A DNA stretch of 64,000 nt from Ruminococcus flavefaciens (GTDB lineage Bacteria > Bacillota > Clostridia > Oscillospirales > Ruminococcaceae), in NCBI GenBank assembly GCA_023662725.1, contig JAMPIL010000008.1, positions 4,471-68,470 on the forward strand. Direction: 5' to 3'. Made by a program: the position numbers and the translations under genes. The notes under the pieces are model-generated. The model saw nothing but the letters and a program-made list of their open reading frames with translations. It ran no database searches and was not told the DNA's origin. Of the stretch, positions 1 through 30,136 are shown piece by piece (the first letter of the stretch is position 1; each line of letters opens with the position of its first letter).

Positions 1-1685
1 ATAAAATTTACTGCGCTTACAGATTTAACGGCTTGACAATGGAAATGTTCACTGCGGTAAACGATATGTTTTCAAATCCAATGCCAAGCTTCAAGGCTGC
101 CGATATTTTGGCAGGATTTATTACAGCGGCAGCTTTCAAGCTGTTTCTGTACATCAAGAAGAAAAACAAGAAAAATTACCGCGACAAGGAAGAATACGGC
201 TCTGCACGCTGGGGAACGGCAAAGGATATTGAACCGTATGTTGATACGGAAAATCCCAAAAACAATATAATCCTCACTCAGACCGAGTGTTTGACTATGA
301 ACGGCAGAGTGCCTAATCCGAAATACGCACGAAATAAAAATATACTTGTTGTGGGCGGTTCAGGTTCAGGCAAAACAAGATTTTTCGTAAAGCCTAATAT
401 CATGCAAATGCACAGCAGCTACGTTGTCACCGACCCGAAAGGCACGATAGTTTTAGAGTGCGGAAAAATGCTGCAAACGGCAGGATACCGCATAAAAGTC
501 ATAAACACTATAAACATGGACAAGTCCATGCACTACAATCCTTTCGCCTATCTGCACAGCGAGGAAGATATTCTGAACCTTGCAAATACGATAATCACCA
601 ACACAAAAGGCGAGGGAGACAAAAGCGGAGAAGATTTTTGGGTAAAAGCTGAAAGACTGCTTTATGTTGCGTTTATCGCTTTGATATATTATGAATTTCC
701 TGCCGAAGAAAAACATTTCGGTACGCTCTTATGGCTTATCAACCAGTGCGAAACACGGGAGGACGATGAAACGTTCAAGAACCGTGTTGACATTGCTTTT
801 GAAAAGCTTGAAAAGAAAAAGGGCGAAGACCATTTTGCGGTAAGACAGTACAAAAAATATAAACTGGCGGCAGGAAAGACCGCAAAATCTATCCTTATTT
901 CGTGCGGCGCGAGACTTGCGCCGTTTGACATAGAAAAAGTCAGAAAAATGATGGCTTATGACGAAATGGAACTTGACACGCTCGGAGACCCCGACCAAAA
1001 AACGGCTCTGTTCGTAATAGTTTCGGACACGTCAACAACTTTCAATTTTATTATTGCGATGTTGTACACGCAGCTTTTCAATCTGCTCTGTACCGTCGCT
1101 GATGATAAATACGGCGGCAGACTGCCTACTCACGTTCGCTGTCTGCTTGATGAGTTTGCGAACATCGGGCAAATCCCGAATTTCGATAAGCTCATAGCCA
1201 CTATCAGAAGCCGTGAAATATCGGCTTCTATTATTTTGCAGTCCAAATCGCAGTTAAAAGCGATTTACAAAGATAACGCCGATACCATTATCGGCAACTG
1301 TGATACCGAACTGTTTCTCGGCGGAAAGGAAAAGTCAACACTCAAGGAGTTGTCCGAAATTTTAGGTAAACAGACTATCGACCTTTTCACCACATCGGAA
1401 ACAAGAGGACAGTCGCAGTCATCAGGGACTAATTACAACAGAACAGGGAGGGAGCTGATGTCACAGGACGAAATCGCGGTAATGGACGGCGGCAAATGTA
1501 TCATGCAAATCAGAGGAACGAGAGCGTTTTTCTCGGACAAGTTTGATATTACAAAGCACGACCGTTACAAGGAATTATCTGATTTCGACCCTAAAAACAC
1601 ATTTGACATAACGGGATATGTCAAATCAAGAGCAAAAATCAAGAAAAACGACGAAATAGAAATCATGTCCCGAATGGTTTTCTAA
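1..1685 (+). CDS. virD4: Type IV coupling protein VirD4/TraG (5' partial; frame is open from position 3)
   Basis: YGSARW motif, Walker A GGSGSGKT, DPKG, LLDEFAN Walker B, ILQS motif. Confidence 0.93.
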   Translation, partial: KIYCAYRFNGLTMEMFTAVNDMFSNPMPSFKAADILAGFITAAAFKLFLYIKKKNKKNYRDKEEYGSARWGTAKDIEPYVDTENPKNNIILTQTECLTMNGRVPNPKYARNKNILVVGGSGSGKTRFFVKPNIMQMHSSYVVTDPKGTIVLECGKMLQTAGYRIKVINTINMDKSMHYNPFAYLHSEEDILNLANTIITNTKGEGDKSGEDFWVKAERLLYVAFIALIYYEFPAEEKHFGTLLWLINQCETREDDETFKNRVDIAFEKLEKKKGEDHFAVRQYKKYKLAAGKTAKSILISCGARLAPFDIEKVRKMMAYDEMELDTLGDPDQKTALFVIVSDTSTTFNFIIAMLYTQLFNLLCTVADDKYGGRLPTHVRCLLDEFANIGQIPNFDKLIATIRSREISASIILQSKSQLKAIYKDNADTIIGNCDTELFLGGKEKSTLKELSEILGKQTIDLFTTSETRGQSQSSGTNYNRTGRELMSQDEIAVMDGGKCIMQIRGTRAFFSDKFDITKHDRYKELSDFDPKNTFDITGYVKSRAKIKKNDEIEIMSRMVF

Positions 1686-1719
1686 CCGTCAAAGCATTTA
1701 TTTTATGGAGGTAAAACCA

Positions 1720-1941
1720 ATGGATTTTTTTGCAGACGCAATAGGCGCATTACAGACAGTTATGATACTTATCGGCGCAGGACTTGGCGCATGGGGAATT
1801 TTCGGCTTGCTTGAAGCGTACAGTTCCGATAATGCAGCAGCCAAAGCTTCGGGTATAAAGCAAATCATGGGCGGAGGAGGAATCATACTTCTTGCCACAA
1901 TACTTATCCCGAAGCTGAAAGACCTCATGTCAACATCATGA
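1720..1941 (+). CDS. Maff2-family small membrane (pilin-like) conjugation protein
   Basis: GGAGG SD before ATG 1720; two hydrophobic helices, GLGAWG and GIKQIMGGGGI motifs; position after virD4. Confidence 0.75.
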   Translation: MDFFADAIGALQTVMILIGAGLGAWGIFGLLEAYSSDNAAAKASGIKQIMGGGGIILLATILIPKLKDLMSTS

Positions 1942-1955
1942 GTGTATTCCAGAAA

Positions 1956-1975
1956 GCGTGTCACGGTGACACACT
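1956..1975 (+). repeat. Dispersed palindrome copy 1 (core GTGTCACGGTGACAC 1958-1972)
   Basis: Exact 15-bp core in intergenic gap after the Maff2-like gene. Confidence 0.95.
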
Positions 1976-2040
1976 GAAATAATATAAAAATGCCGTCACG
2001 ATTTTATTCGTGGCGGCACAATATTCGGGAGGTGATTTAT

Positions 2041-2982
2041 TTGGGAAAAGTAAGCGATGCGATTGATGGTATTAAGGACGGTATTGTAGATGCAATAGAA
2101 GAATTTATACAGAAAACATTAGGCGGCATGATTGAAAGTATTCTTACAACATCAGCAGACTGCCTTGAAACTGCAATTGGAGACGCAAGCAGTAAAGTTT
2201 CTGTAACTCCAAGCGGTTGGCTCAGCGGAAAAATGCCTGACGGTCAGTCGCCATACGAAGTTCTTCAGCAAATTTCCAATGCAGCAATTATGCCGATAGC
2301 TATAGGTATAATGGCGATTATTATCTGCTATGACCTGATTTCAGCTTGTACCGACAAAAACAGTTTCAAGGAATTTGACACATCAATATTTTTTCGATTT
2401 ATTGTCAAAGCGTGGGTAGCAATTTATTTTATGAATAACTGTTTCACTATTTTTTCGGGAATATTCGATATAGGGGCGTCGATAGTCAGCAAAACCACAG
2501 CGATAATTACTTCATCAAACGTTTCTGTGACAAGCCAGTTAGCACAAGTTTTCTCCGGAAAATGGTACACCAATTTCTCTGTTGGACAGCTTTCCACTTC
2601 GCTTTTGCTATCGCTGTTGACCTATATAGCCTCATTAGCTATATTTGTTATTATCATGGTCGTCACGGCTGGGCGAATGATAGAAATAATGATTTATTTC
2701 TGCTCCGCCCCTATTCCATTTGCAACAATGACGAACAAAGAATGGAGTCATATCGGGTTTTCGTTCCTTAAAACACTGTTCGCCTTTGCGCTTCAATCAT
2801 TCATCATAATTGTTATTCTTGTACTGTTTGAAGTCATTTTCAATGCAGAGGTCATAACGGCAATCAGCGATATGGATTCTCTTCCATTAGCACTGCTTAA
2901 GTGGTTGGGTTATGCTACTGTCTGCTGCTTTATGCTTTTAAAATCCGGAAGTATAGCAAAATCAATTTGCGGAACGCATTAA
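2041..2982 (+). CDS. VirB6/TrbL-like polytopic conjugation membrane protein
   Basis: GGAGGTGA SD before TTG 2041; multiple TM segments; GRMIEIMIY..APIPFAT motif typical of Firmicutes ICE VirB6. Confidence 0.8.
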   Translation: MGKVSDAIDGIKDGIVDAIEEFIQKTLGGMIESILTTSADCLETAIGDASSKVSVTPSGWLSGKMPDGQSPYEVLQQISNAAIMPIAIGIMAIIICYDLISACTDKNSFKEFDTSIFFRFIVKAWVAIYFMNNCFTIFSGIFDIGASIVSKTTAIITSSNVSVTSQLAQVFSGKWYTNFSVGQLSTSLLLSLLTYIASLAIFVIIMVVTAGRMIEIMIYFCSAPIPFATMTNKEWSHIGFSFLKTLFAFALQSFIIIVILVLFEVIFNAEVITAISDMDSLPLALLKWLGYATVCCFMLLKSGSIAKSICGTH

Positions 2983-2994
2983 GGAGGTCGAAAA

Positions 2995-3384
2995 ATGGCT
3001 TTATACATGAAAATACCAAAAGATTTGAACAATATCAAAGACACGGTAATGTTCAAAATGACAAAACGCCAGCTCATTTTCAACGCTATAGGCTTAGCAT
3101 TGGGTTTTACAGCATTTTGGCTGACATACAAGCCGCTTGGAACAAGCACGGCAGGAATTTTGCTGTTTTGTCTCGGCTGTCCGTTCTTTATCATGGGAAT
3201 GTACGAAAGAAACGGATTTACGCTTGAAAAAATATTGCTGAACTTTATACGGTACAAGCTCTGTCCGCAGATACGACCGTATAAGACGGAAAACATTTAC
3301 CGTAAAATTGCGGAAGAAATTGAATACAAGAAAGAGGTGGAAATGCTTGAAACAGTCAGAAAAAAAGTCAAACTCAAAAACTAA
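2995..3384 (+). CDS. prgI: PrgI-family (VirB3-like) protein
   Basis: IPKDLNNIKDTVMFKMTKRQL N-terminus, two TM helices, directly before virB4. Confidence 0.85.
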   Translation: MALYMKIPKDLNNIKDTVMFKMTKRQLIFNAIGLALGFTAFWLTYKPLGTSTAGILLFCLGCPFFIMGMYERNGFTLEKILLNFIRYKLCPQIRPYKTENIYRKIAEEIEYKKEVEMLETVRKKVKLKN

Positions 3385-5833
3385 GACCGTGCCGCTTTCA
3401 AAACAGGAATATGAAGCTGTCAAGCAAAGTGTTTCGGCAAAAGAAAAACAGCGGAACGCCGTTAAATTGCCGCAAACCGCACAGCAGTCCATACCCTTTG
3501 ACTATATGACCAAAGACGGTATTGCGGTATCAAGCGAACATGAAAAATTTTCGCTTATTGCATTTCTGTTCGGAAAAAAGAAGCCGACGGAAATAAGGTA
3601 CAGCAAGACGGTACAGTTTTACGACGTTGATTACGAAATAGCGGAAATTTCAAAACAGCAGAATATTTTCGCTAAATACTGCGGTCTGCTGAACTGCTTT
3701 GACAGCAGTGTGAAATTTCAGATTTCCGTTGTGAATGTCACAAACGACGATGATTTTGAGGACATAATAGAGCTGCCGGAACGTAACGACGATTTCAACG
3801 ATATTCGCAAGGAATACTGCGATATGCTCCGTGAAAAGCTTGCAAAGGGCAATAACGGCTTTATCCGTGTGAATTATATAACCTTTTCCGTAACGGAAAA
3901 AAATATAAACAAGGCACGTCAGCAGCTCACGGGAATTGAAAAAGACGTTATCCGTGCATTAAGGTCATTCGGCGTGGCGGCTGTTCCGCTGAACGGAGAG
4001 GAAAGGCTGTTTGCACTGTACAAAATGCTTCACCAATACTCAAACGACACGTTTCTGTGCGATTTTGACAGTATGTCCGAAGCCGGATATATGCCAAATG
4101 ACTACATTGCGCCGTCCTCGCTTAATTTCTCCAAAAAAGACGAGTTCAAGTGCGGAAATTTCTGCGGCTCTACATTTTCAATCAATTTGCTTGCTTCGGA
4201 AGTATCGGACAGATTTCTTTCAGACCTTATGGACACGGAAAATCCCATAGCTTTCAATATGCACTTTACGGCGGTGGATAACCTTGAAGCTAAAAAATTC
4301 GTCAAACTGAAATTATCCAACGTTGAAAAAATGAAAGTTGACGAACAGAAAAAAGCGGCACAGCAAGGCTACGATATGGACATTCTTCCTCCCGACATGA
4401 AAACATACATCAATGAACTTAACGTTCTGCTTGACGATTTGGAAAACAAAAATGAGAGAATGTTCCTTGTGACTATCCTTGTAACCAATTTTGCCAAAAG
4501 CGGAAAAATGCTGAACGTGTGCAACGACAGACTTAATCGTATCGTTTTACAGGCAAATTCACAGCTTATTCCTCTTGACTATCGGCAGGATTTGGGACTT
4601 GCTTCAATTCTTCCCCTTGCGGAAAACAGGATTGAAATAGAACGTCGCCTGACTACAAGCTCGGCTGCTATTTTCCTGCCATTCTCCACAAAAGAAATTT
4701 TTATGGGCGGTGAAGCCGTGTATTACGGTCTTAATCAGATTTCCGACAATATGATTATGGCTGACAGAAAACAGCTTGACAACCCTAACGGTATAGTATT
4801 GGGTGTTCCGGGCGGCGGTAAGTCGTTTCAGGTCAAATGTGAAATAGCTCCGGTTTTTCTGTTCACAAACGACGATATTATGATTTGCGACCCCGAAGAT
4901 GAGTATCATCCGCTTGTCAAGGAATTTCATGGACAGGTCATTGAGATTTCAACCGACAGCTCAGACTATATAAATCCCATGGATATTGACCGAAACAGCG
5001 GCGAGGAAGATATTATCGGCGTAAAATCGGAGTTTATTATCTCTCTTTGCGAACTTGTTGCAGGAGGAAAATACGGACTTGACCCGCAGGAAATTTCAAT
5101 TATCGACCGTTGTGTACGAAATCTGTACATAAACTTTTTTTCGGAAATGGAAAATGCGACCGAGGAAGAATTCAAGGCAAATATGCCGATTTTAGGCGAT
5201 TTGCAAAAGGCTCTTATTGAGACCGGAGAAGATTACGCAAGGCGTGTTGCAAATTCCCTTGAAATTTACGTTACTGGTTCTCTGAATATTTTCAATCACC
5301 GCACAAACGTTGATTTGAAGAACCGTATCGTCTGCTACAACATCAAAAAGCTGAAAAATACACTCAGAAAGCTCGGTATGCTGATAGTGCAAGACCAAGT
5401 ATGGAACAAGGTTTCAATGAACCGCGGCAAAAAATCAACATGGTACTACATGGACGAATTTCACTTGCTGCTCAAGGAGGAACAGACCGCAAAATATTCC
5501 GTTGAGATGTGGAAACGTTTCAGAAAATGGGGCGGTATTCCTACCGGACTTACGCAGAATGTAAATGATTTTCTTTCATCGAAAGAAGTCGAATCCATTT
5601 TTGACAATTCCTCGTTTGTCATAATGCTGAAACAGGCGGTCGGAGACGTTGACGTGCTTGCACAAAAACTGAAAATTTCTCCCTCGCAGCAGAAATATAT
5701 TGAAAGCACTGTGCCGAGGGGCAGCGGACTTATTTACTATGGCGGAAGTATTCTTCCATTCAACAACCGTTTCCCGACTGATACAAAGCTTTACGGACTT
5801 ATGACAACAAAGCCGCAGGAAAGCATGATTTGA
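3308..5833 (+). CDS. virB4: VirB4-like conjugative ATPase (true start may be TTG near 3348)
   Basis: Walker A GVPGGGKSF, DPEDEY, Walker B MDEFH, RKWGG motif. Confidence 0.92.
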   Translation: MRKKLNTRKRWKCLKQSEKKSNSKTKTVPLSKQEYEAVKQSVSAKEKQRNAVKLPQTAQQSIPFDYMTKDGIAVSSEHEKFSLIAFLFGKKKPTEIRYSKTVQFYDVDYEIAEISKQQNIFAKYCGLLNCFDSSVKFQISVVNVTNDDDFEDIIELPERNDDFNDIRKEYCDMLREKLAKGNNGFIRVNYITFSVTEKNINKARQQLTGIEKDVIRALRSFGVAAVPLNGEERLFALYKMLHQYSNDTFLCDFDSMSEAGYMPNDYIAPSSLNFSKKDEFKCGNFCGSTFSINLLASEVSDRFLSDLMDTENPIAFNMHFTAVDNLEAKKFVKLKLSNVEKMKVDEQKKAAQQGYDMDILPPDMKTYINELNVLLDDLENKNERMFLVTILVTNFAKSGKMLNVCNDRLNRIVLQANSQLIPLDYRQDLGLASILPLAENRIEIERRLTTSSAAIFLPFSTKEIFMGGEAVYYGLNQISDNMIMADRKQLDNPNGIVLGVPGGGKSFQVKCEIAPVFLFTNDDIMICDPEDEYHPLVKEFHGQVIEISTDSSDYINPMDIDRNSGEEDIIGVKSEFIISLCELVAGGKYGLDPQEISIIDRCVRNLYINFFSEMENATEEEFKANMPILGDLQKALIETGEDYARRVANSLEIYVTGSLNIFNHRTNVDLKNRIVCYNIKKLKNTLRKLGMLIVQDQVWNKVSMNRGKKSTWYYMDEFHLLLKEEQTAKYSVEMWKRFRKWGGIPTGLTQNVNDFLSSKEVESIFDNSSFVIMLKQAVGDVDVLAQKLKISPSQQKYIESTVPRGSGLIYYGGSILPFNNRFPTDTKLYGLMTTKPQESMI

Positions 5834-20659: not shown

Positions 20660-20746
20660 CAAAACTTGTGCAAAGTGCCGAAATATAAAGTCAAGATAGA
20701 AATATCTTGACTTTAGCACTTTAATGTGATATAATATAATGGAGGA

Positions 20747-23700
20747 ATGGAAATGCAAAACAACAAGGTAAGTGAGGCACAAGCAATTTATATCAATGAA
20801 ATACGGCGTGTTCAGGAGACTGCCGAAAAGTGGAAAGATTTTCTTGATTTTGCGGCACAGGCACAGATAAGTGAAAATCAAAGTGAATTTGAATTCTCCT
20901 CAAAGCTTATTATCCATGCCGAAAATCCCAACGCAGCAGACTGTCGGACGTTCGGAGAGTGGAAAACAGCAGACGGAAATCATATCAAACAGGGGCAGCA
21001 CGGCATAGCCGTATTGTCCCGAAACAGCAAAGGAAATCAGTCTGTAACATATCTTTTTGACACAAGTCAGACTGCGCTTGCCAAAGAGCCTGAACGTCCC
21101 GAAATACCCGAAGAAATCAAAAATAATCTTAAATCCGCTTTAAGCGATGTGATTGAAATACATTCCGGTAACGCTTCATTTTCAGACGAACAGAAACGCA
21201 TTTTTGCGGCAACCGCCGAATACAGGCTGTGCAAACAGTACAGTCTTGAAACTGACGAAAATTCGGAAAGATTTTCGGGAATTGAAAAGCTGTCGGTAAA
21301 GGAAATTGCCAATATCGGAGTTTCTCTTAACAGGTGCAGTCAGTCGTTTTCCGACATTGTGAATAATGAGAGGAGTAATTTTTATGAGGCACAACGAAGC
21401 AATGATGGTCAATCAAGAGATGATAGGACGGAACTTTATAGACGAGAACAACGAGGAATGGATTTGGGTGGAGGGAGAAGCGGAAACTCCAATGCATATG
21501 AAGAAATACGACTTCAACGAGGAAACGAACAGGTGGGGCAAGCTGAACGAGGAACAGGGAGTATACGAGCCGATGTTTTGGGTACATCAGCCGAAGCCGA
21601 CAGCGGCAATGGGCAAGTACGGCAGCATGAGACTGAAATTCATATGGCAGACCCCTCACCTGATAGAAGCTATAATGCTGAACGAGGAACTGGACGTAGA
21701 GGAGCAGAACCTGAACAGGCACTGCGAGGAGATGAACGAGAAAGTTCTGAACCTGATAGAGGAAATCGTGGAGAAGAAAAAGCAGTCGGAGGAATACAAG
21801 GCGATAGAGGAATCGGGGAAATTCCTGCCGAAAGTGCAGATACTGGAGAGGTACAAAGCGGAAGCGGAGGAAGAAATACTTCCGGTGACGGTGTACGCGA
21901 TATAACGGAGAAAACGGCAGAACCTGAAAAGGTTTCTGCCGTTTCTGATTTGTCCGTTCAGGAAGAAACTCCGGAGGTAAATATTCAGCCTGAAATCAGC
22001 ATTGAAGCAAAACAGGGTGAAATTACTTCCGATATACTCAGGGGAAGTGGTATTCAGGGCGGTAAGCAAAGAATAGAAGCGTTCTATAACGAACAGCAGC
22101 CGAATAGAAAAGATTTTGCCGATTTTCTTAAAAATGAATACGGTATAGGCGGTCATTCAGGCAACGAACCGCTTAAAAGCCAATTTCACGACAGCAAAGG
22201 ACTTTCCTATAAATTTGCAGACGGCACGGACATTCGTCTGAGTTGGTCAGAAGCCGCAAAAAGAATATCGAATTTAATTGACAGAAATGAGTATCTTAAC
22301 GCCGATGAGATTACTCCGAATGACCTAAACGAGCGGAAAGAGAACAGGTCAGACCCTTTTGAAAACTCCAAACGTTCCAAAAACGGAGATGTTATCTTAG
22401 GCAACACAACTTTCAGATATATCCCCGAAAAAACCTATACCAAAATTGATAAAGACATAGCTGCCGAGGTATCGGAGCAGCTTGAAAAACAAGGCATAAA
22501 ATTTTCGGGAGTTATAAAGGGAGATACAGCAACAATTACCGTCAGCAAGCCGCAGAAAGAAACGCTTGATAAGATTATTGCGGATATTTCTTCTCCCGAC
22601 CTTGATGTACAGCTTTCTCAAAGTGAATTTATAGAAATCGCTTCAAATTTGCTATCGGCTGATACAACAGTTTCCAATGCGCATAAGTATTCCGACAAGC
22701 AGAATTACCGCACAGAAATTGATAACGGAATAGACCGTATTTTTACCGAAGCATTGACAGGAAACAGGGATATTGGTTATTCCGTTCCTGAAATGTCACA
22801 GCTTTGGAACGAATTTCAAAATGACAGTAATGTCCGTGAATATATTAGGAATATCGTTTCAGAAAATGTTGATATTTCTCTCACCGCCAATGAACAGCTT
22901 GAGATTTTTTCTAATGCTGAAAAAAACGATAAAGCAATATCCTTTTCAAGCTTGGATTTTGAAAAGAAAATTCCAAATGAAATGAGATGGAAAGAAAATT
23001 CTATTGTTGAGGATAACACAGCTTTATATTGGGTAACGCAAGAAATTTTTACCGAAGCTGACCTTGACAAATTTCAAGCGGCACTAAAAGATACCGATAT
23101 TAAAAAAGCCTATGTTATTCCCCGTGATTTAAGCGGATACAGCTTTGAGGACGATATGGCAAATAATACTCCATTTGCCGTTGTTACAAAAGACAGTATT
23201 TCCTGCAAGGACTATATTAACACAATAAAGTCCGTATATAATTATGATGTTTCAAAGCAACAGGAAGAAGAAAATATCGTCCAAAGTTCAGAGCAACGCA
23301 TATATGACCGCACAGAAGCCGCAATCACAAGGGATATGTACCAAACCGAAAATCCCGATGTGCTTGTTATAAAGGGCAGAGGCAGCCTTGCAAAGATTGA
23401 TATTTCCGTCAGTGATGAACTGTGGGAAAGACTTGCCGAAAAGGGACTTGTAAGGAACGAGGACAGCGTTGACAGGGTAATTTTTAATACCGATAACGGG
23501 AACTGGAACAAGCTTGTAATTCCCGATAAATGGGGAAATTTGACCAACAATATCAGTATCGAGGACGTTTTTACCCGTGAGGAATTGCAGACCGCTAAAT
23601 CCGTTGCGGATTTTGTTATCGGAAACGATGATGTTCAGCAAGTGCTTGACAATTTCAAAGAAGATATAACGTCTGTTGAAAATAACGTTAATGATGTCAA

Positions 23701-26700
23701 GGAAAGTGAGAGAATTTGTACGCCAATTCTTGAAACAGCGGACGAAAATGGCAGACCAACAAGCTATTCCACTAAATATAACGATAAATTTTATTGGATA
23801 AGCGAAAACGCTGACGGTAAGTACGATATTGAAACGGATTTCGGCAATGGTATCGTAAACGTAGGTGAGGAATATTCTGATTTTCCTGCAAGGTATCTTG
23901 CGGAAGAAGCCTTTGAGGACTATATTGCCGACGTTCTTTCAGCCGAACATGAAGCGGAAATAACCGAACCGCAGAATGAACCATTCTTGGAGGAAATAAG
24001 CGGCAATAACGGCACTGTCAAATATAAGGTCACGGAGAACGCTGACGAGCAGTACAAATACAATGTACAGATATTTACTCAGGGCGAAAACGGCGAATTT
24101 TATTACAGCGGCAGCGGTCGCTTCTGCGAAACACTCGATGAAGCTCATGCATTTATTGAAAATGATATTGCAGAGCGTACCGCCGAAAAGGATAGACAAC
24201 ATTCCGTTAAGGACGAAATTCCCGGAAACGATAAACATAACATTTCACAAGGACAGATGTCATTGTTCGATGATATTCCGGATACAGAGGAATTTTCCAA
24301 TGAAAAAAACTATCAGGTTGTCACCTATTCTAATGATTCGGGTGCAGATGATAAAAAGGATTTTCCTACACTGGACGAAGCCGTTGAAAAAGGCAGAAGT
24401 TATTTGTATGACAGGGAATACGAGGGTTATTATTCGGGCATTGCAATTCTTAACACAAAAGAACACAAGGTTGAATATTATGAGGGCGATTTCCCGTTAG
24501 AGGGTATTTTCAGCGAACAGGTATATCAAAACAGCGGTGAATGGCAACGTGTTGAAGCAACACCAAACGTATTTGACACGAATGCTCCGGGAGCTATGAA
24601 AACGGAACAGGCAAGACTTATGAATGAAAAAAGTGCCAATAAGTTAATTAAAAGCGGCGAAGTGGACATTCCTCTGCCACAGGATTTAGCTGCTCCGATA
24701 CAGTTTGAACAGTCTCCTTTAAATGCAGAGCGTGTCACGGTGACACACTCCGAAGCTTCGGCAGCTCCTGCCGAAGAAGTGGTTAAAACTCTCGACCTTG
24801 AAAATGACAAGCCGGAAGAAAAGAAGTCCGATAACCTTTTCCGCATAACAGACGGGCATTTGGGCGAGGGCAGCAAAAAAGAAAAATTCAAGAACAATAT
24901 TGAAGCTATAAAAACGCTGCAAATACTTGAAGCAGAAGAACGTGCTGCCACTCCCGATGAACAGGAAACATTATCAAAATATATCGGCTGGGGCGGTTTG
25001 CAGGAAGCCTTTGACGATTCAATCTCCGCTTGGAACGCCGAATATCACGAACTCAAAAATTTTATTTCCGAAGAAGAATACGAAGCCGCACGGTCTACCG
25101 TAAACGACGCATTTTACACCTCCCCTGTCATAACTCAGGCAATTTATGAGGGACTTGCTAATATCGGCTTTAACGGCGGCGAAGTACTTGAGCCGTCAAT
25201 GGGCATTGGAAACTTTTTCGGAACTATGCCCGATAAAATGCGTGAAAACAGTAATCTGTCGGGAATTGAAATTGACAGCATTTCAGGACGTATCGCACAA
25301 AAACTCTATCCCGAAGCCAACATTGCCATAAACGGTTTTGAAAATGTAAAGCCGCCGAAAGCTACTTTTGATTTGGCAGTCGGCAACGTTCCTTTCGGAA
25401 ATCACGGTGTAAACGACAAAACAAAAGTATATAAAGGACTTCTTATACACGACTATTTCTTTGCAAAATCACTTGACAGCGTTCGTCCGGGCGGTGTGGT
25501 ATCTTTTGTAACTTCAACAGGCACGCTCGATAAAGAAGATACGAAAGTCCGTCAAATGCTTGCACAAAAGGCGGAGCTTATGGGCGCGGTCAGACTGCCA
25601 AACAACGCTTTTCAGAAAAACGCAGGAACGCAAACGGCAACCGATATTATATTTTTGAAAAAGCGTGAAAAACCGCTTAATATCGGCGATATGCCTATGG
25701 ACAAATCCTGTGATTGGGTGCATACAAAGGAAAACTCCGACGGTCTTAAGATAAACAGCTATTTTGCCGACAATCCCGAAATGGTTTTAGGCGAACTTTC
25801 CGACAAGGGACGTTTCGGCAGTATAATCTGCACTCCGATTCAGGGCGCAGACCTTAAAGAGCAGCTCCATGAAGCTATGAAAAATATCAAGGGAGAGTAC
25901 TCTCCTCTTGAATTTCAGGCTGAACTTGACGAACGTGCGGAAAATAGCTACTTAACCGCAACTCCCGATATTGAAAATCTGACCTATACGGTTGTGGACG
26001 ATAAACTGTATTTCCGTGTTGACGATAATCTTATTCCGCTGAAAGAAAGCGAACAGCACGGAGTTACCGCCGAAAGGCGCAAAGCAATGAGCGGTCTTGG
26101 CGAAACTACCCGTGAACTTCTTCAGGCACAGGTCGAGGACAGACCCGACAAGGAAATAAAGCTGCTGCAAGCGGAGCTTAACGTTAAGTATGACAAATTC
26201 GTTCAGAAATTCGGACGGATAAATCCTATTGAAACGCCTAACCCACGAAATGCAAGCGGCGTTACAAGAAAAGCACCAAACAGCAACGTTTTCAAAAACG
26301 ACGTAAGACTTCCCCTTTTGCAGTCCCTTGAAAAAATGAAAGAGGGACAGTTTGTCGGTAAAACGGCTATTTTTACCGAAAGAACTATACGTCCCCGTAA
26401 AGTCGCAGAACACGTTGATACCGCACATGAAGCATTGATTTTGTCAATGTCCGAAAAGGGAAAAATTGATTTTGATTATATGCAGGACTTGACAGGCTTT
26501 GAGAAAGAAAAAATAATTTCCGATTTGCACGGTGACATCTACCCTGTTCCCGAACTTTCCACGGAAGATAACACTGTGTATCAAACAAGCGATGAATATT
26601 TATCGGGCAATATTTACAAGAAAATAGCTATGGCAGAAGCAAAAATATCCGAAAATCCTGCCTACGCTGAAAACGTTGCGGCTCTGACAGAAGTAATACC

Positions 26701-29700
26701 GAAACCGCTGAAAGCTACGGAAATAGATATGCAGCTCGGTATGACTTGGATCGATACAAAAATTATCAATCAGTTTATGTATGAGACTTTTGAAACTCCG
26801 CAGAGATTTAAGGAATATGACGGAGACGTGCCGCAGAAAAATCCCTCCGCTATAACGGTTGAATATTCGGGCGCAGGAAAAGGCTCTTGGAAAGTTGAAA
26901 ACGCACGTCTTGACAATTCCGTGAAGTCTACAAAAAATTTCGGTACAAAGGACTATAACGCTTATGAGCTGCTTGAAAAAATTCTGAACGCTAAATCTGT
27001 TGCGGTAACGCAAGTCGTGAGAGATGACGAGGGCAGACAAAAGACTGTAATTCTTGAAAAGCAGACAAAGACGGCGGAAGATAAGGTAAAACAAATAAAT
27101 GCCGCTTTCAAAAAATGGGTTTTTGCAGACCCCGAAAGACGCAACGAACTTGTCAAAACATATAACGAAAAATTTAACGGTATACGTCCCCGTGAATACG
27201 ACGGCAGCAATCTTAATTTCTTCGGTTCAAATCCCGAAATTACATTAAAGCCACATCAGAAAAACGCTGTCGCACACGCACTTTTTGGCGGCAATACGCT
27301 GTTTGCACATCAGGTTGGTGCCGGAAAAACGTTCGAGATGATAGCAACTGCTATGGAGGGAAAACGGCTCGGATTGCATAATAAGAGTATGTTTGTCGTT
27401 CCAAATCATCTGACGGAACAGATAGGCTCTGACTTTATGAAGCTGTACCCTAACGCAAATATTCTTGTCGCAAAGCCTGACGATTTTTCGCCGCAGAAGC
27501 GCAGACAGATGTGTGCGAGAATTGCAACAGGAAATTTTGACGCGGTAATTATCGGGCATTCGCAACTTATAAAAATACCCCTTTCCGCGAAGCGTGAAGA
27601 AGCCTTTATAAAAAATCAAATCGACGATATAGTGTCTGCTCTTGAAGCTGCCAAAGAAACAGACAACAAAAGCTACACGGTAAAGCAGCTTGAAGCCACA
27701 AGAAAAAATCTACGTGAACGTCTTGAAAAGCTTACTAACGGCACGGTCAAGGACAATGCGGTCACATTTGAGGAGCTTGGCGTTGACAAGCTGTTTGTGG
27801 ACGAAGCTCACGAGTTTAAAAACCTATATGTTTCAACAAAAATGGAGAATGTTTCGGGACTTTCAACTAATGCTGACGTTCAGAAAACGCAGGATTTGTA
27901 CATGAAATGTCAGTACCTTGACGAAAAAACGGACAGTAAAGGTATCGTTTTCAGCACGGGAACTCCTGTGACCAATGCTCTTTCGGAAATGTATACCACA
28001 ATGAAATATTTGCAGTCCGACTTGCTGAGAGAAACAGGTCTTGACAGCTTTGACGCGTGGGCAGGAAATTTCACAAGAAAATCTACCGAAGCTGAAATCT
28101 CGCCCAGCGGCAGCGACTGGAGAATGAAAACACGTCTTAAATTTACCAATGTTCCCGAACTTGTCACTATGTTTAAAGAATGTGCCGACGTAAAAATGGC
28201 TGACCAACTCAATCTTGACGTGCCTGAATGTGAAAAGCACATTGTTTCGGTAGAGCCGACAGAAGCGCAGAAAGCGGTTGTACACTCCCTTGCAATAAGA
28301 GCAGAAGCAATCAGCAAGGGAGAGGTTTCAAGAACAGAGGATAATATGCTTGTTGTAACGGGTGACGGAAGAAAGCTCGGTCTTGACCAACGGCTTTATG
28401 ACCTGAAACTGCCAGATGAACCGCAGACAAAGCTGAACGCTTGTATTCAGAACGTTTTTGATATTTGGGAAAAAACGTCCGACAAAAAATCAACGCAGCT
28501 TGTTTTCTGTGATTTGGGCGTACCGCAGTCCAAAGAGGATTTAAAGAAAAATGGTGAAAGGTTTGACGTTTATGCCGATATTCGTTCAAAGCTGATAGAA
28601 AAAGGCGTTCCCGAAAAGGAAATAGCCTTTATCCATGAAGCCAACAGCGAGACGGAAAAGGCGAAATTATTTGCCAAAGTCCGCAGCGGAGACGTTCGTG
28701 TGCTTATCGGTTCAACGCAAAAAATGGGCGCAGGAACTAACGTGCAGGACAAGCTTGTTGCACTTCACGACCTCGATTGTCCGTGGAGACCTGCCGACCT
28801 TACACAGCGTTTGGGACGTATGGTCCGGCAAGGCAACGAGAACAAGAAAGTAGATAATTTCAGATATGTTACTAAAGGCACGTTCGACGCGTATCTGTAC
28901 CAAATGGTGGAGAAAAAGCAGGAGAGCATTTCGCAGATTTTCACTTCAAAGGCTATTGCACGAACCTGTGACGATATTGACGATATGGCTGTGGACTTAA
29001 TGCAAGTCAAAATGGCTGCTGTCGGCGATGACCGTATCAGGCGGCAAATGGAACTCAAAGAGGATATTCGCAGTCTGAATATGCTGAAAAATACATACCT
29101 TGAAAACAAATATGAAATCGAGGACAATATAAAAAGGCTGCCGGAAAAAATATCACGAACCGAAAAAATAATCGAGGGAATTGCCGCCGACACAAAAACG
29201 GTAAATGGGTATGTTCCTAAAAAAGACATTGACGGTCAGGAAATTTTTGAAATGCAAGTCGGAAATACCTTATACGTTGAAAAAAAAGAAGCGGCGGAAG
29301 CTCTCAAAACCGCTATGACAACTGCTGTTGTGGGAAATCCTAAAGCGCAGACGGATATAGCCGAATACAAAGGCTTCAAAATTGCAGTTTCCTATGACAG
29401 CTTCACAAAATCATACACGGGACACCTAAAAGGCGAAAACAGCTATCAATTTGAATTTGGCAGCAGCGAAAGCGGAAATATGACGAGAATAGATAACGCT
29501 ATTGCCGCAGTTCCGCTGCGTATTGACGGAGCTTGCAACGAGCTTGACCGCTTGAAAACAGAGCTTGCCGACAGTATAAAGGAAGTTGATAAACCATTTG
29601 AGCATGAAGCGGAGCTTGAGGAAAAGAAGCAGGAGCTTGAACGTTTGACAGATGAGATAAATGCCGATAAGGTCAAGGGTGAGATTGCTCCGGAGCAGCC

Positions 29701-30136
29701 GGAAAGTACGGAAAAATCTTCTGAAAAAGCTGAAAATCAGGCAGAAAAAGCCGGAAATCTCAACATAAAATGGCGGCAGAACGATAAGGAGCTTCGCATA
29801 ACCTATGACAGTACCGCCGAAAACAAAATTACTGCGTATTCTGACGGAAAAGAAATAGGACACTGCACTCCCGATGAGCTGACGGTCACAAAAATAAGCG
29901 AGAGCGAACAGAAGAATTATCCCGACGGAATAAACAAATGCGTTAAGCCGCTTAATCTTGCGTTCAGCAATAAAATCTCCATGCACATAAGAGAGTTTGC
30001 TGTAAGGGTCAGAGCTGCCGAAAAGTCCGCTGAAAAGGACGATAAGGCTCTTTTCTCCCGTGACAGAATTATGAGTGATGAATTTAAGCCGACTTCGGAA
30101 AAAACTTCCGATACTCCTAAACAGCAGGAGCATTGA
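20747..30136 (+). CDS. Giant DarB-like protein: ArdC-like N-terminus, N6-adenine methyltransferase, SNF2 helicase
   Basis: WKDFL..TFGEWK..YLFDTSQT (ArdC-like); EPSMGIGNF and VGNVPF (MTase); HQVGAGKT, VDEAH, QRLGRMVRQGN (SF2 helicase). Confidence 0.9.
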   Translation: MEMQNNKVSEAQAIYINEIRRVQETAEKWKDFLDFAAQAQISENQSEFEFSSKLIIHAENPNAADCRTFGEWKTADGNHIKQGQHGIAVLSRNSKGNQSVTYLFDTSQTALAKEPERPEIPEEIKNNLKSALSDVIEIHSGNASFSDEQKRIFAATAEYRLCKQYSLETDENSERFSGIEKLSVKEIANIGVSLNRCSQSFSDIVNNERSNFYEAQRSNDGQSRDDRTELYRREQRGMDLGGGRSGNSNAYEEIRLQRGNEQVGQAERGTGSIRADVLGTSAEADSGNGQVRQHETEIHMADPSPDRSYNAERGTGRRGAEPEQALRGDERESSEPDRGNRGEEKAVGGIQGDRGIGEIPAESADTGEVQSGSGGRNTSGDGVRDITEKTAEPEKVSAVSDLSVQEETPEVNIQPEISIEAKQGEITSDILRGSGIQGGKQRIEAFYNEQQPNRKDFADFLKNEYGIGGHSGNEPLKSQFHDSKGLSYKFADGTDIRLSWSEAAKRISNLIDRNEYLNADEITPNDLNERKENRSDPFENSKRSKNGDVILGNTTFRYIPEKTYTKIDKDIAAEVSEQLEKQGIKFSGVIKGDTATITVSKPQKETLDKIIADISSPDLDVQLSQSEFIEIASNLLSADTTVSNAHKYSDKQNYRTEIDNGIDRIFTEALTGNRDIGYSVPEMSQLWNEFQNDSNVREYIRNIVSENVDISLTANEQLEIFSNAEKNDKAISFSSLDFEKKIPNEMRWKENSIVEDNTALYWVTQEIFTEADLDKFQAALKDTDIKKAYVIPRDLSGYSFEDDMANNTPFAVVTKDSISCKDYINTIKSVYNYDVSKQQEEENIVQSSEQRIYDRTEAAITRDMYQTENPDVLVIKGRGSLAKIDISVSDELWERLAEKGLVRNEDSVDRVIFNTDNGNWNKLVIPDKWGNLTNNISIEDVFTREELQTAKSVADFVIGNDDVQQVLDNFKEDITSVENNVNDVKESERICTPILETADENGRPTSYSTKYNDKFYWISENADGKYDIETDFGNGIVNVGEEYSDFPARYLAEEAFEDYIADVLSAEHEAEITEPQNEPFLEEISGNNGTVKYKVTENADEQYKYNVQIFTQGENGEFYYSGSGRFCETLDEAHAFIENDIAERTAEKDRQHSVKDEIPGNDKHNISQGQMSLFDDIPDTEEFSNEKNYQVVTYSNDSGADDKKDFPTLDEAVEKGRSYLYDREYEGYYSGIAILNTKEHKVEYYEGDFPLEGIFSEQVYQNSGEWQRVEATPNVFDTNAPGAMKTEQARLMNEKSANKLIKSGEVDIPLPQDLAAPIQFEQSPLNAERVTVTHSEASAAPAEEVVKTLDLENDKPEEKKSDNLFRITDGHLGEGSKKEKFKNNIEAIKTLQILEAEERAATPDEQETLSKYIGWGGLQEAFDDSISAWNAEYHELKNFISEEEYEAARSTVNDAFYTSPVITQAIYEGLANIGFNGGEVLEPSMGIGNFFGTMPDKMRENSNLSGIEIDSISGRIAQKLYPEANIAINGFENVKPPKATFDLAVGNVPFGNHGVNDKTKVYKGLLIHDYFFAKSLDSVRPGGVVSFVTSTGTLDKEDTKVRQMLAQKAELMGAVRLPNNAFQKNAGTQTATDIIFLKKREKPLNIGDMPMDKSCDWVHTKENSDGLKINSYFADNPEMVLGELSDKGRFGSIICTPIQGADLKEQLHEAMKNIKGEYSPLEFQAELDERAENSYLTATPDIENLTYTVVDDKLYFRVDDNLIPLKESEQHGVTAERRKAMSGLGETTRELLQAQVEDRPDKEIKLLQAELNVKYDKFVQKFGRINPIETPNPRNASGVTRKAPNSNVFKNDVRLPLLQSLEKMKEGQFVGKTAIFTERTIRPRKVAEHVDTAHEALILSMSEKGKIDFDYMQDLTGFEKEKIISDLHGDIYPVPELSTEDNTVYQTSDEYLSGNIYKKIAMAEAKISENPAYAENVAALTEVIPKPLKATEIDMQLGMTWIDTKIINQFMYETFETPQRFKEYDGDVPQKNPSAITVEYSGAGKGSWKVENARLDNSVKSTKNFGTKDYNAYELLEKILNAKSVAVTQVVRDDEGRQKTVILEKQTKTAEDKVKQINAAFKKWVFADPERRNELVKTYNEKFNGIRPREYDGSNLNFFGSNPEITLKPHQKNAVAHALFGGNTLFAHQVGAGKTFEMIATAMEGKRLGLHNKSMFVVPNHLTEQIGSDFMKLYPNANILVAKPDDFSPQKRRQMCARIATGNFDAVIIGHSQLIKIPLSAKREEAFIKNQIDDIVSALEAAKETDNKSYTVKQLEATRKNLRERLEKLTNGTVKDNAVTFEELGVDKLFVDEAHEFKNLYVSTKMENVSGLSTNADVQKTQDLYMKCQYLDEKTDSKGIVFSTGTPVTNALSEMYTTMKYLQSDLLRETGLDSFDAWAGNFTRKSTEAEISPSGSDWRMKTRLKFTNVPELVTMFKECADVKMADQLNLDVPECEKHIVSVEPTEAQKAVVHSLAIRAEAISKGEVSRTEDNMLVVTGDGRKLGLDQRLYDLKLPDEPQTKLNACIQNVFDIWEKTSDKKSTQLVFCDLGVPQSKEDLKKNGERFDVYADIRSKLIEKGVPEKEIAFIHEANSETEKAKLFAKVRSGDVRVLIGSTQKMGAGTNVQDKLVALHDLDCPWRPADLTQRLGRMVRQGNENKKVDNFRYVTKGTFDAYLYQMVEKKQESISQIFTSKAIARTCDDIDDMAVDLMQVKMAAVGDDRIRRQMELKEDIRSLNMLKNTYLENKYEIEDNIKRLPEKISRTEKIIEGIAADTKTVNGYVPKKDIDGQEIFEMQVGNTLYVEKKEAAEALKTAMTTAVVGNPKAQTDIAEYKGFKIAVSYDSFTKSYTGHLKGENSYQFEFGSSESGNMTRIDNAIAAVPLRIDGACNELDRLKTELADSIKEVDKPFEHEAELEEKKQELERLTDEINADKVKGEIAPEQPESTEKSSEKAENQAEKAGNLNIKWRQNDKELRITYDSTAENKITAYSDGKEIGHCTPDELTVTKISESEQKNYPDGINKCVKPLNLAFSNKISMHIREFAVRVRAAEKSAEKDDKALFSRDRIMSDEFKPTSEKTSDTPKQQEH
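21384..21905 (+). CDS. tnpV: TnpV-like protein nested in the +1 frame of the giant helicase ORF
   Basis: SD GAGAGGAG (21368-21375) 8 nt before ATG; MGKYGSMRLKF...AEAEEEIL...VY matches TnpV family pattern. Confidence 0.7.
   Translation: MRHNEAMMVNQEMIGRNFIDENNEEWIWVEGEAETPMHMKKYDFNEETNRWGKLNEEQGVYEPMFWVHQPKPTAAMGKYGSMRLKFIWQTPHLIEAIMLNEELDVEEQNLNRHCEEMNEKVLNLIEEIVEKKKQSEEYKAIEESGKFLPKVQILERYKAEAEEEILPVTVYAI
24732..24749 (+). repeat. Dispersed palindrome copy 7 (intragenic, encodes VTVTH)
   Basis: GTGTCACGGTGACACACT inside the giant helicase. Confidence 0.9.

Follow-up and report, generated by a model that had tools for sequence, protein, structure and literature searches.

Do the same 522 nucleotides (nt) of one DNA strand encode two different proteins in a conjugative element of Ruminococcus flavefaciens? 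The question was raised by a stretch of 64,000 nt from contig JAMPIL010000008.1 (assembly GCA_023662725.1, positions 4,471 to 68,470 of the forward strand), which we refer to as the window and in which a small gene related to tnpV lies entirely within a giant open reading frame (ORF) for a helicase-containing protein. A sequence-only reading of the window had offered two possibilities: that the helicase overprinted a tnpV gene when separate modules were fused, or that both products are made. These alternatives are not exclusive, and the sequence comparisons reported here favor both of them. Based on the codon choices and substitution patterns of related loci, it is likely that both frames are functional and that the 522 nt represent same-strand dual coding in a conjugative element of Clostridia. 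The tnpV frame is the constrained and probably the older reading, and the linker encoded by the giant frame over the same bases is probably the newer one.

The nested tnpV gene and the overprinted linker

The ORF listing placed a small ORF (21366..21905, + strand, 179 amino acids) wholly within the giant ORF (20747..30136, + strand). We put the start of the gene at 21384 rather than at 21366 because of the placement of a Shine-Dalgarno (SD) sequence, GAGAGGAG (21368-21375, + strand), which lies within the giant ORF 8 nt ahead of the ATG at 21384, and because homologs begin at the aligned Met. The tnpV-like gene so defined occupies 21384..21905 on the + strand (173 codons plus TAA), and its distance from the first ATG of the giant ORF (21384 − 20747 = 637, which leaves a remainder of 1 when divided by 3) places it in the +1 frame. 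The sequence-only reading had the coordinates, the frame, and the strong SD sequence of this 522-nt ORF right. Among 15 helicase-associated loci (12 distinct sequences), 14 have GAGAGGAG, GAAAGGAG, GAAAGGAA, GATAGGAG, or GAGAGGAA 7 to 9 nt before the ATG, and the sole exception is a 5'-truncated copy (L019).

The proposal that the product is TnpV-like held up in two kinds of profile comparison. The protein matched Pfam PF14198 (TnpV) above the gathering score (28.8 bits versus 27; E value, 1.2e-6; profile positions 5-107 of 111), and a scan of the source genome gave a single TnpV match, at 30 bits. Moreover, an hhalign comparison of the window's TnpV subfamily (alignment A1, 16 members) with canonical TnpVs from a class-wide genome scan (alignment A4, 15 members) gave a probability of 95.6% and an E value of 1.1e-8 over 125 columns, nearly the entire canonical protein. 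In a phylogenetic tree, the subfamily grouped apart from the canonical TnpVs, on a long branch with full support. Its 16 sequences share 35 invariant positions (W, Y, G, P, and others), and the stop codon and the length are kept as well.

The window's TnpV does not have the typical size of the family (114 to 125 residues, single domain) but has 173 residues, with an N-terminal extra of ~60 to 75. An AlphaFold2 model (predicted local distance difference test [pLDDT], 81.5) contained five short strands (residues 31-69), followed by a five-helix C-terminal part (80-175). Judging from these alignments and the model, the window's TnpV appears to be a divergent, longer subfamily with a beta-rich N-terminal extension, newly recognized here. 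An NCBIfam search gave nothing useful for it, and tblastn against PLSDB found no match. An Xis-like accessory role in excision has been postulated for the TnpV of Tn4451 (PMC3158075). When we searched the model of the window's TnpV against the PDB with Foldseek, there was no match at E <= 1, Xis-like or other, and the Xis-like idea gains no support from this comparison of a predicted structure.

Over the same bases, the giant frame contains no stop codon and encodes a low-complexity linker (21383..21906, + strand; residues ~213-387 of the giant protein) rich in G, R, E, S, and D, much as the sequence-only reading had described. The linker peptide consists of 17% G, 13% R, and 12% E and includes ...GTGSIR and ADVLGTSAEADSGNGQVR. 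Small, polar, or charged residues (G/R/E/S/D/N/Q/T/A/P) make up 84% of it and hydrophobic residues 14%, compared with 62% and 28%, respectively, in the whole giant protein. The DNA of the overlap is purine rich (GC skew, ~0.3; AT skew, ~0.4), and its G+C content is ~10 points above that of the flanks.

We estimated by simulation how many stops the giant frame would contain given the TnpV protein. With the protein fixed and synonymous codons drawn from the usage of the downstream helicase of the same locus (1,000 runs per locus), 19.7 giant-frame stops were expected in the window and 15 to 20 in each of the 12 distinct loci, and none of the 1,000 runs was open in the window or in any other locus. 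When the synonymous codons of tnpV itself were permuted, the probability of an open giant frame was 0.005 in the window; across loci, it was at most 0.01 in 11 of the 12 and 0.084 in the remaining one. A giant-frame stop requires a T at the third position of a tnpV codon that is followed by a codon starting with AA, AG, or GA. At these risky third positions T was never used, either in the window's tnpV (0 of 69) or in any of the 12 nested loci, whereas it was present at 11 of 104 third positions elsewhere in the window's tnpV (11%) and at 26% of those in the risky context of the window's downstream ORF (range across loci, 26 to 39%). To judge from these counts, the codon choice of tnpV actively keeps stops out of the giant frame, beyond what composition would bring about.

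Pairwise ratios of nonsynonymous to synonymous substitution rates (dN/dS; NG86; 11 loci, 55 pairs) differed between the two frames of the overlap. In the tnpV frame, dN/dS was 0.15 to 0.4 in all 55 pairs. For the same bases read in the giant frame, it was 1.0 to 1.9, lying above 1.0 in 53 pairs (the other two, 0.83 and 0.98), which shows only the absence of a visible strong constraint on the peptide because NG86 is biased in overlapping frames. Giant-frame values were 0.1 to 0.28 for the N-terminal domain of the giant protein and 0.2 to 0.7 for the modules beyond the overlap, where dS was saturated and modules were swapped. From these comparisons, the protein-level constraint visible in the overlap seems to act on tnpV; for the giant frame, staying open is the only requirement seen, a pattern that agrees with the description of the segment as an overprinted linker. 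The dS of tnpV was ~2-fold below that of the N-terminal domain at larger distances and equal to it for the closest pair. We considered this reduction as a sign of constraint on the linker peptide and set that reading aside, taking the lower dS to follow from the limited choice of codons.

Close relatives, free-standing copies, and the breadth of nesting

A protein search with the TnpV returned 15 homologs (54 to 73% identity), all of which had been called as separate genes and nearly all of which carried a TnpV Pfam domain. On contigs of conjugative elements, the gene order was a DUF3991/Toprim gene, ~600 uncalled bases, tnpV, and a giant SNF2 gene, and ORF listings of these contigs showed that the "uncalled" bases, tnpV, and the giant gene are spanned by one continuous frame. 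The gene callers used for the public assemblies had called tnpV and a truncated helicase and had left out the N-terminal domain. A scan of species-representative genomes added 12 more loci, from Ruminococcus, Oscillospiraceae, and other metagenome-assembled genomes (MAGs) of Clostridia. All helicase-associated loci had a giant frame that was open from ~620 nt ahead of tnpV as far as the fetched DNA reached, and both frames were open in all 12 distinct loci of this kind (TnpV identity, 57 to 86%).

Three of the close relatives have features of their own. Two copies, L008 (86% TnpV identity) and L015 (66%), come from MAGs labeled Alistipes (Bacteroidota), and all other loci are from Clostridia; the label reflects either mis-binned DNA of a Firmicute element or transfer across phyla. 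In L019 (3959-4435), from a Huintestinicola MAG, tnpV is shortened to 144 codons with no SD sequence seen and carries the NCBI label "TnpV protein." The giant frame of that locus opens only at 3982, within the 5' end of tnpV, and the N-terminal domain is missing or displaced.

Free-standing copies provided a control for the openness of the giant frame. On small plasmid-like contigs (L005-L007, ~1647-2213), tnpV lies after a Rep3 initiator gene and before relB/yoeB, there is no helicase, and the giant frame is closed in the tnpV copies. One of these copies, L005, is 88% identical in nucleotide sequence and 90% identical in protein sequence to the nested copy L016, and the homology between the two stops exactly at the SD sequence and the stop codon. 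L005 has four stops in the former giant frame, and T is more frequent at its third codon positions (20% versus 12%). In the tree, L005 falls within a clade (support, 99/98) together with nested L016, and every other member of the subfamily whose context is known is nested. On the evidence of the tree and the alignment, this stand-alone plasmid tnpV looks like an escape from nesting. Among canonical TnpV genes, 28 of 30 had stops in the corresponding frame (mean, 5.4 per 104 codons), and the two stop-free ones (L048 and L050) were themselves nested in a giant ORF.

When 400 genomes from across the class were scanned with a profile of the N-terminal domain, 50 gave matches, most of which lay where an open frame of 2,000 to 3,900 codons begins. 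TnpV matches were found in 48 of these 50 genomes, compared with 151 of the 400 overall. We fetched 27 loci in which the N-terminal domain was seen by hidden Markov model (HMM), a set that leaves out the window's own locus. A TnpV HMM match lay downstream in 23 of them, without exception in the +1 frame, and 21 of these matches fell within the open giant frame. Two loci (L057, reverse strand 2135-2575; L060, reverse strand 2189-2605) contained nested +1 ORFs of 139 to 147 codons that were missed by the TnpV HMMs and have a TnpV-like C terminus (...KEVVEV/I), and more divergent nested TnpV subfamilies probably exist. With these two included, a TnpV or TnpV-like ORF was present in 25 of the 27 loci, in the +1 frame in all 25 and within an open giant frame in 23. 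The sequence-only reading had raised the possibility that homologs carry stops in one of the frames; both frames were open in all 12 close loci and in 23 of the 25 distant loci with a TnpV-like ORF. From these scans, the nested layout appears to extend over multiple TnpV subfamilies and many clostridial families.

The giant protein and the hairpin after tnpV

The giant ORF has 3,129 codons when counted from its first ATG at 20747. Its SD sequence, GGAGG (20741..20745, + strand), lies 7 nt before a second ATG at 20753 and 1 nt before that at 20747. Because of this spacing, and because homologs begin at the aligned Met (MPN...), the true start is probably 20753. In a consensus scan, TTGACT-17 nt-TGTATAAT (TG-TATAAT; 20707..20735, + strand; 11 of 12 consensus matches) was the only strong + strand promoter candidate able to drive both the giant ORF and tnpV. 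The same kind of scan of 20760-21384 gave no + strand promoter-like site, and hence no internal promoter for tnpV was found.

The N-terminal domain (20753..21382, + strand; ~210 residues) has a mean column identity of 72% in 11 loci, and AlphaFold2 predicted a confident fold (pLDDT, 92; predicted template modeling score, 0.89). Its frame has no stop of its own, the first stop coming only at 30136. Because the domain is predicted to be folded, is under purifying selection, and lacks its own stop, its product would arise only as part of a fusion protein, with translation continuing across tnpV in frame 0. After tnpV, the giant frame of the window has no Met for ~300 residues of a conserved-looking domain and no start preceded by an SD sequence either. 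The N-terminal domain is homologous to that of the giant ORF of L048 (23% identity over 121 residues; E value, 2e-9), which is the host of a canonical TnpV. The sequence-only reading had called this module ArdC-like, which we could not confirm: the module had no Pfam match at E <= 1, single-sequence and profile searches of the PDB gave no ArdC and nothing else of note, and a Foldseek search of the model found no ArdC and no PDB match at E <= 0.001, the best hit being a LonA fragment (E value, 0.06).

Following the N-terminal domain and the linker, the giant protein contains variable modules, N6-methyltransferase-like motifs, and an SNF2/ResIII/Helicase_C region. Of the methyltransferase and SNF2 modules named in the sequence-only reading, the latter was recovered above the Pfam cutoffs in residues 2165-2700 (SNF2-rel_dom, 34.9 bits with a gathering score of 24.9; Helicase_C, 31.3 with 23.5; ResIII, 26.0 with 22.5). 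The former was represented by motifs read by eye that resemble those of N6-adenine methyltransferases (VLEPSMGIGNF and GNVPFG; window positions 25200-25900, residues ~1490-1720), and no Pfam methylase family matched the giant protein at E <= 1. The window as a whole is a conjugative element, with TrbL/VirB6-like, VirB4/TraG-type ATPase, and CD1107-like genes, a topoisomerase III, and a C5 methylase, and a DUF3991-Toprim gene lies immediately upstream of the giant ORF.

Within the giant ORF, folding identified a terminator-like hairpin (21912..21952, + strand) 7 nt past the stop codon of tnpV. Its stem (21912-21924 / 21931-21944) consists of 13 pairs with one bulged U, the loop is TGAAAA (UGAAAA in RNA), and the U-rich tail is CUGAUUUG. 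In the giant frame, the hairpin block encodes the conserved TAEPEKVSAVSDL. The stem is nearly invariant in the 12 loci, including at four-fold degenerate third positions (codons ACG, GCA, CCT, TCT, GCC, GTT, and TCT), with a dS elsewhere of 0.5 to >1; the loop is variable (GAAAAG, TAATAC, GATATG, and GACATG). The few changes in the stem are one-sided and keep the pairing (G-U to A-U or G-C), and the G-U pairs indicate that the structure belongs to + strand RNA. There were no compensatory double changes in the 12 loci, and covariation support within the subfamily is nil. The hairpin is absent after the stand-alone plasmid tnpV, and a consensus terminator scan did not call it in the window, where the tail is only moderately U-rich. 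We regard this predicted hairpin, newly recognized here, as terminator-like and nothing stronger. Right after ...SAVSDLS (from 21953 onward; L001, L004, and L008-L016), the giant protein varies in its modules from locus to locus, some loci having entire domains that others lack. On this alignment, the hairpin block would also mark a boundary of module exchange.

Other subfamilies of nested tnpV have unrelated hairpins with runs of 5 to 8 T at the same site within the giant ORF (L052-55, L059, L061, L062, L066/67, L073, and L080), and these hairpin regions are among the stablest 1.4 to 9.5% of the 63-nt windows of their loci. No such hairpin was found in the highest-scoring canonical group (L068-L078). 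In RNA-labeled sequencing runs, contigs from relatives cover the N-terminal domain, tnpV, and the hairpin, and contigs of 5,136 nt and 897 nt span the hairpin site, which would imply some read-through of the hairpin if the contigs derive from RNA; they may also derive from DNA carry-over. Exact matches to the window came only from two runs, X1 and X2, whose type is not stated and which are most likely the genome sequencing of the isolate.

Alternative explanations and the meaning of the nesting

Several observations weigh against functional dual coding or limit what can be drawn from the comparisons. The PF14198 match is borderline, with a margin of only 1.8 bits over the cutoff. NG86 treats as "synonymous" sites of the giant frame what are second positions of tnpV, which is the source of its bias here. 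The 12 loci share kinship and are not 12 independent trials. A terminator-like hairpin within an ORF would leave nonstop messages for the giant frame, and the RNA-labeled runs hold only contigs from relatives (80 to 95% similar), which cannot show translation or 3' ends. Two of the distant loci also depart from the layout. L079 (reverse strand 1423-3330) has one in-frame giant-frame stop inside the overlap, and in L058 (reverse strand 1477-2230) the N-terminal domain forms an ORF of its own that closes after 120 codons, downstream of which lie tnpV and a strong hairpin with a T-run. Thus, fusion is not obligatory everywhere, and these two loci may be decayed or unfused states of the layout.

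The locus might consist of three ordinary genes, with a helicase that starts downstream of 21905 and an open frame that is a by-product of a purine-rich, T-poor tnpV. The purine richness and strand skews of the overlap agree with this explanation, as do the choice of tnpV and a truncated helicase by public gene callers, which left the N-terminal domain uncalled, and the closed 120-codon N-terminal ORF of L058. We nevertheless consider it quite improbable. For 11 of 12 loci, no more than 1% of the shuffles of tnpV's own synonymous codons leave the giant frame open, the avoidance of T is specific to the context that would create a stop (0 of 69 versus 11 of 104), and the close stand-alone copy has four stops. 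Three separate genes would also leave the N-terminal domain under purifying selection yet without a stop codon, would give the helicase of the window neither a Met nor an SD-preceded start for ~300 codons after tnpV, and would not explain why all 25 loci that have a TnpV-like ORF show the same +1 relation.

The converse explanation, that only the giant protein is made and that tnpV is a silent relic conserved through constraint on the giant frame or the RNA, would fit the single promoter-like site upstream of the giant ORF and the fact that giant-frame ribosomes would run over the tnpV start; moreover, the TnpV of the window's locus is known from sequence only. This explanation is very unlikely given that substitutions track the tnpV frame (dN/dS, 0.15 to 0.4) and not the giant frame (>1), that a strong SD sequence and ATG are kept at the right spacing, that the tnpV stop, the length, and the 35 invariant residues are kept across 16 sequences, and that plasmids retain a free-standing gene for this protein. 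A programmed +1 frameshift near 21380, which would yield a fusion of the N-terminal domain with TnpV and a separate helicase, is suggested by a T-run exactly at the junction in the window (AAT TTT TAT G) and by a frame relation that is +1 everywhere. We rejected a frameshift at the TTTTT before the tnpV ATG, as the T-run is not conserved among loci (others have ...gtatgtcaaATG, ...gaatggaaaATG, and ...atgatctgaATG), and frameshifting in general has in our view almost no chance of being correct, with an SD sequence and ATG that point to independent initiation and with the openness of the giant frame over 520 nt left unexplained.

If both frames are used, as we consider likely, one promoter-proximal transcript would carry both starts. 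Ribosomes initiating at the ATG at 20753 would make the N-terminal domain, a disordered linker rich in G, R, E, S, and D, and then the methylase/SNF2-helicase body, whereas those initiating at the internal SD sequence and ATG (21368-21386) would make the 173-residue TnpV-family protein, with its small beta domain and helical bundle. The hairpin, which probably retains an effect on the mRNA, would end or stabilize a short transcript, such that TnpV would be produced in excess from short and long transcripts together and the giant protein would come only from read-through transcripts. As for the history of dual coding at this locus, a gene for the N-terminal domain, tnpV, and a gene for a polyvalent protein may once have been separate neighbors, and loss of the first gene's stop would have led to read-through of tnpV into the third. 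Such a history fits because one frame is constrained and the other is not, because the SD sequence and terminator-like hairpin around tnpV resemble those of a cistron, and because a split variant exists (L058). TnpV travels with DNA-processing genes of mobile elements, for instance on Rep3 plasmids, in TnpX transposons, and beside the Toprim gene of the window.

It is conceivable, if rather doubtful, that the cassette of SD sequence, tnpV, and hairpin acts as a translation-gated switch. In that case, a working terminator would end most transcripts and so yield TnpV, and it would be overridden only when a giant-frame ribosome closely trails the polymerase. Such a switch would tie the synthesis of a 3,129-residue anti-defense/helicase protein to active translation, e.g., early after entry into a recipient, and the unrelated hairpins and T-runs at the same site in other subfamilies would then amount to covariation at the level of the whole element.

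Same-strand nesting as a kind is known. In Bacillus subtilis, comS is nested out of frame in srfAB on the same strand, and Rz1 is nested likewise in the Rz gene of phage lambda; each is a complete small gene in the +1 frame with its own ribosome-binding site, and both partners are regarded as expressed. The window's tnpV resembles them as a complete small +1 gene with its own ribosome-binding site in a larger gene of the same strand. The overlap here is longer, however, at 173 codons compared with 46 for comS and ~60 for Rz1. In addition, unlike in those pairs, it is the nested gene that is conserved and moves independently, the host frame encodes a linker in which nothing but the absence of stops is maintained, and a terminator-like hairpin follows inside the host ORF.

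The TnpVs of Tn4451/Tn4453 and Tn6104-Tn6106 (PF14198) belong to the same superfamily and are likewise found in mobile elements of Clostridia beside DNA-processing genes. The TnpV genes known so far are free-standing and have 114 to 125 codons, whereas the window's tnpV has 173 codons and lies wholly inside another gene. The giant protein, in turn, is similar to the polyvalent proteins of conjugative elements and phages that were reportedly described by Iyer et al. in J Bacteriol in 2017. It is a giant multidomain protein with methylase and SNF2-helicase modules and low-complexity linkers, its gene lies in a conjugative element beside genes for the type IV secretion system, topoisomerase, and Toprim protein, and its modules after the linker differ between relatives. 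Our literature searches found no description of TnpV nesting, with TnpV appearing only free-standing in Tn4451-like elements, and, among the papers searched, no report of a second gene in the linker of a polyvalent protein. What is new here is the pairing of tnpV with a giant gene, its length and breadth, and the internal hairpin.

Long same-strand overlaps in bacteria are considered rare, and few have comparative backing. The strengths of the present case are that 522 nt of likely dual coding recur across many families of Clostridia, that a control is built in, since free-standing copies of the gene quickly gain stops in the other frame, and that the frames appear to divide their labor, one encoding a protein that is conserved and the other a linker whose sequence is free as long as the frame stays open. 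Gene callers cannot represent such nesting: either tnpV is dropped or the giant gene is truncated and its N-terminal domain lost. The annotation of widespread conjugative elements of gut bacteria is therefore systematically wrong at this locus. The nested locus offers a handle on the function of TnpV and on how the expression of giant polyvalent proteins is controlled.

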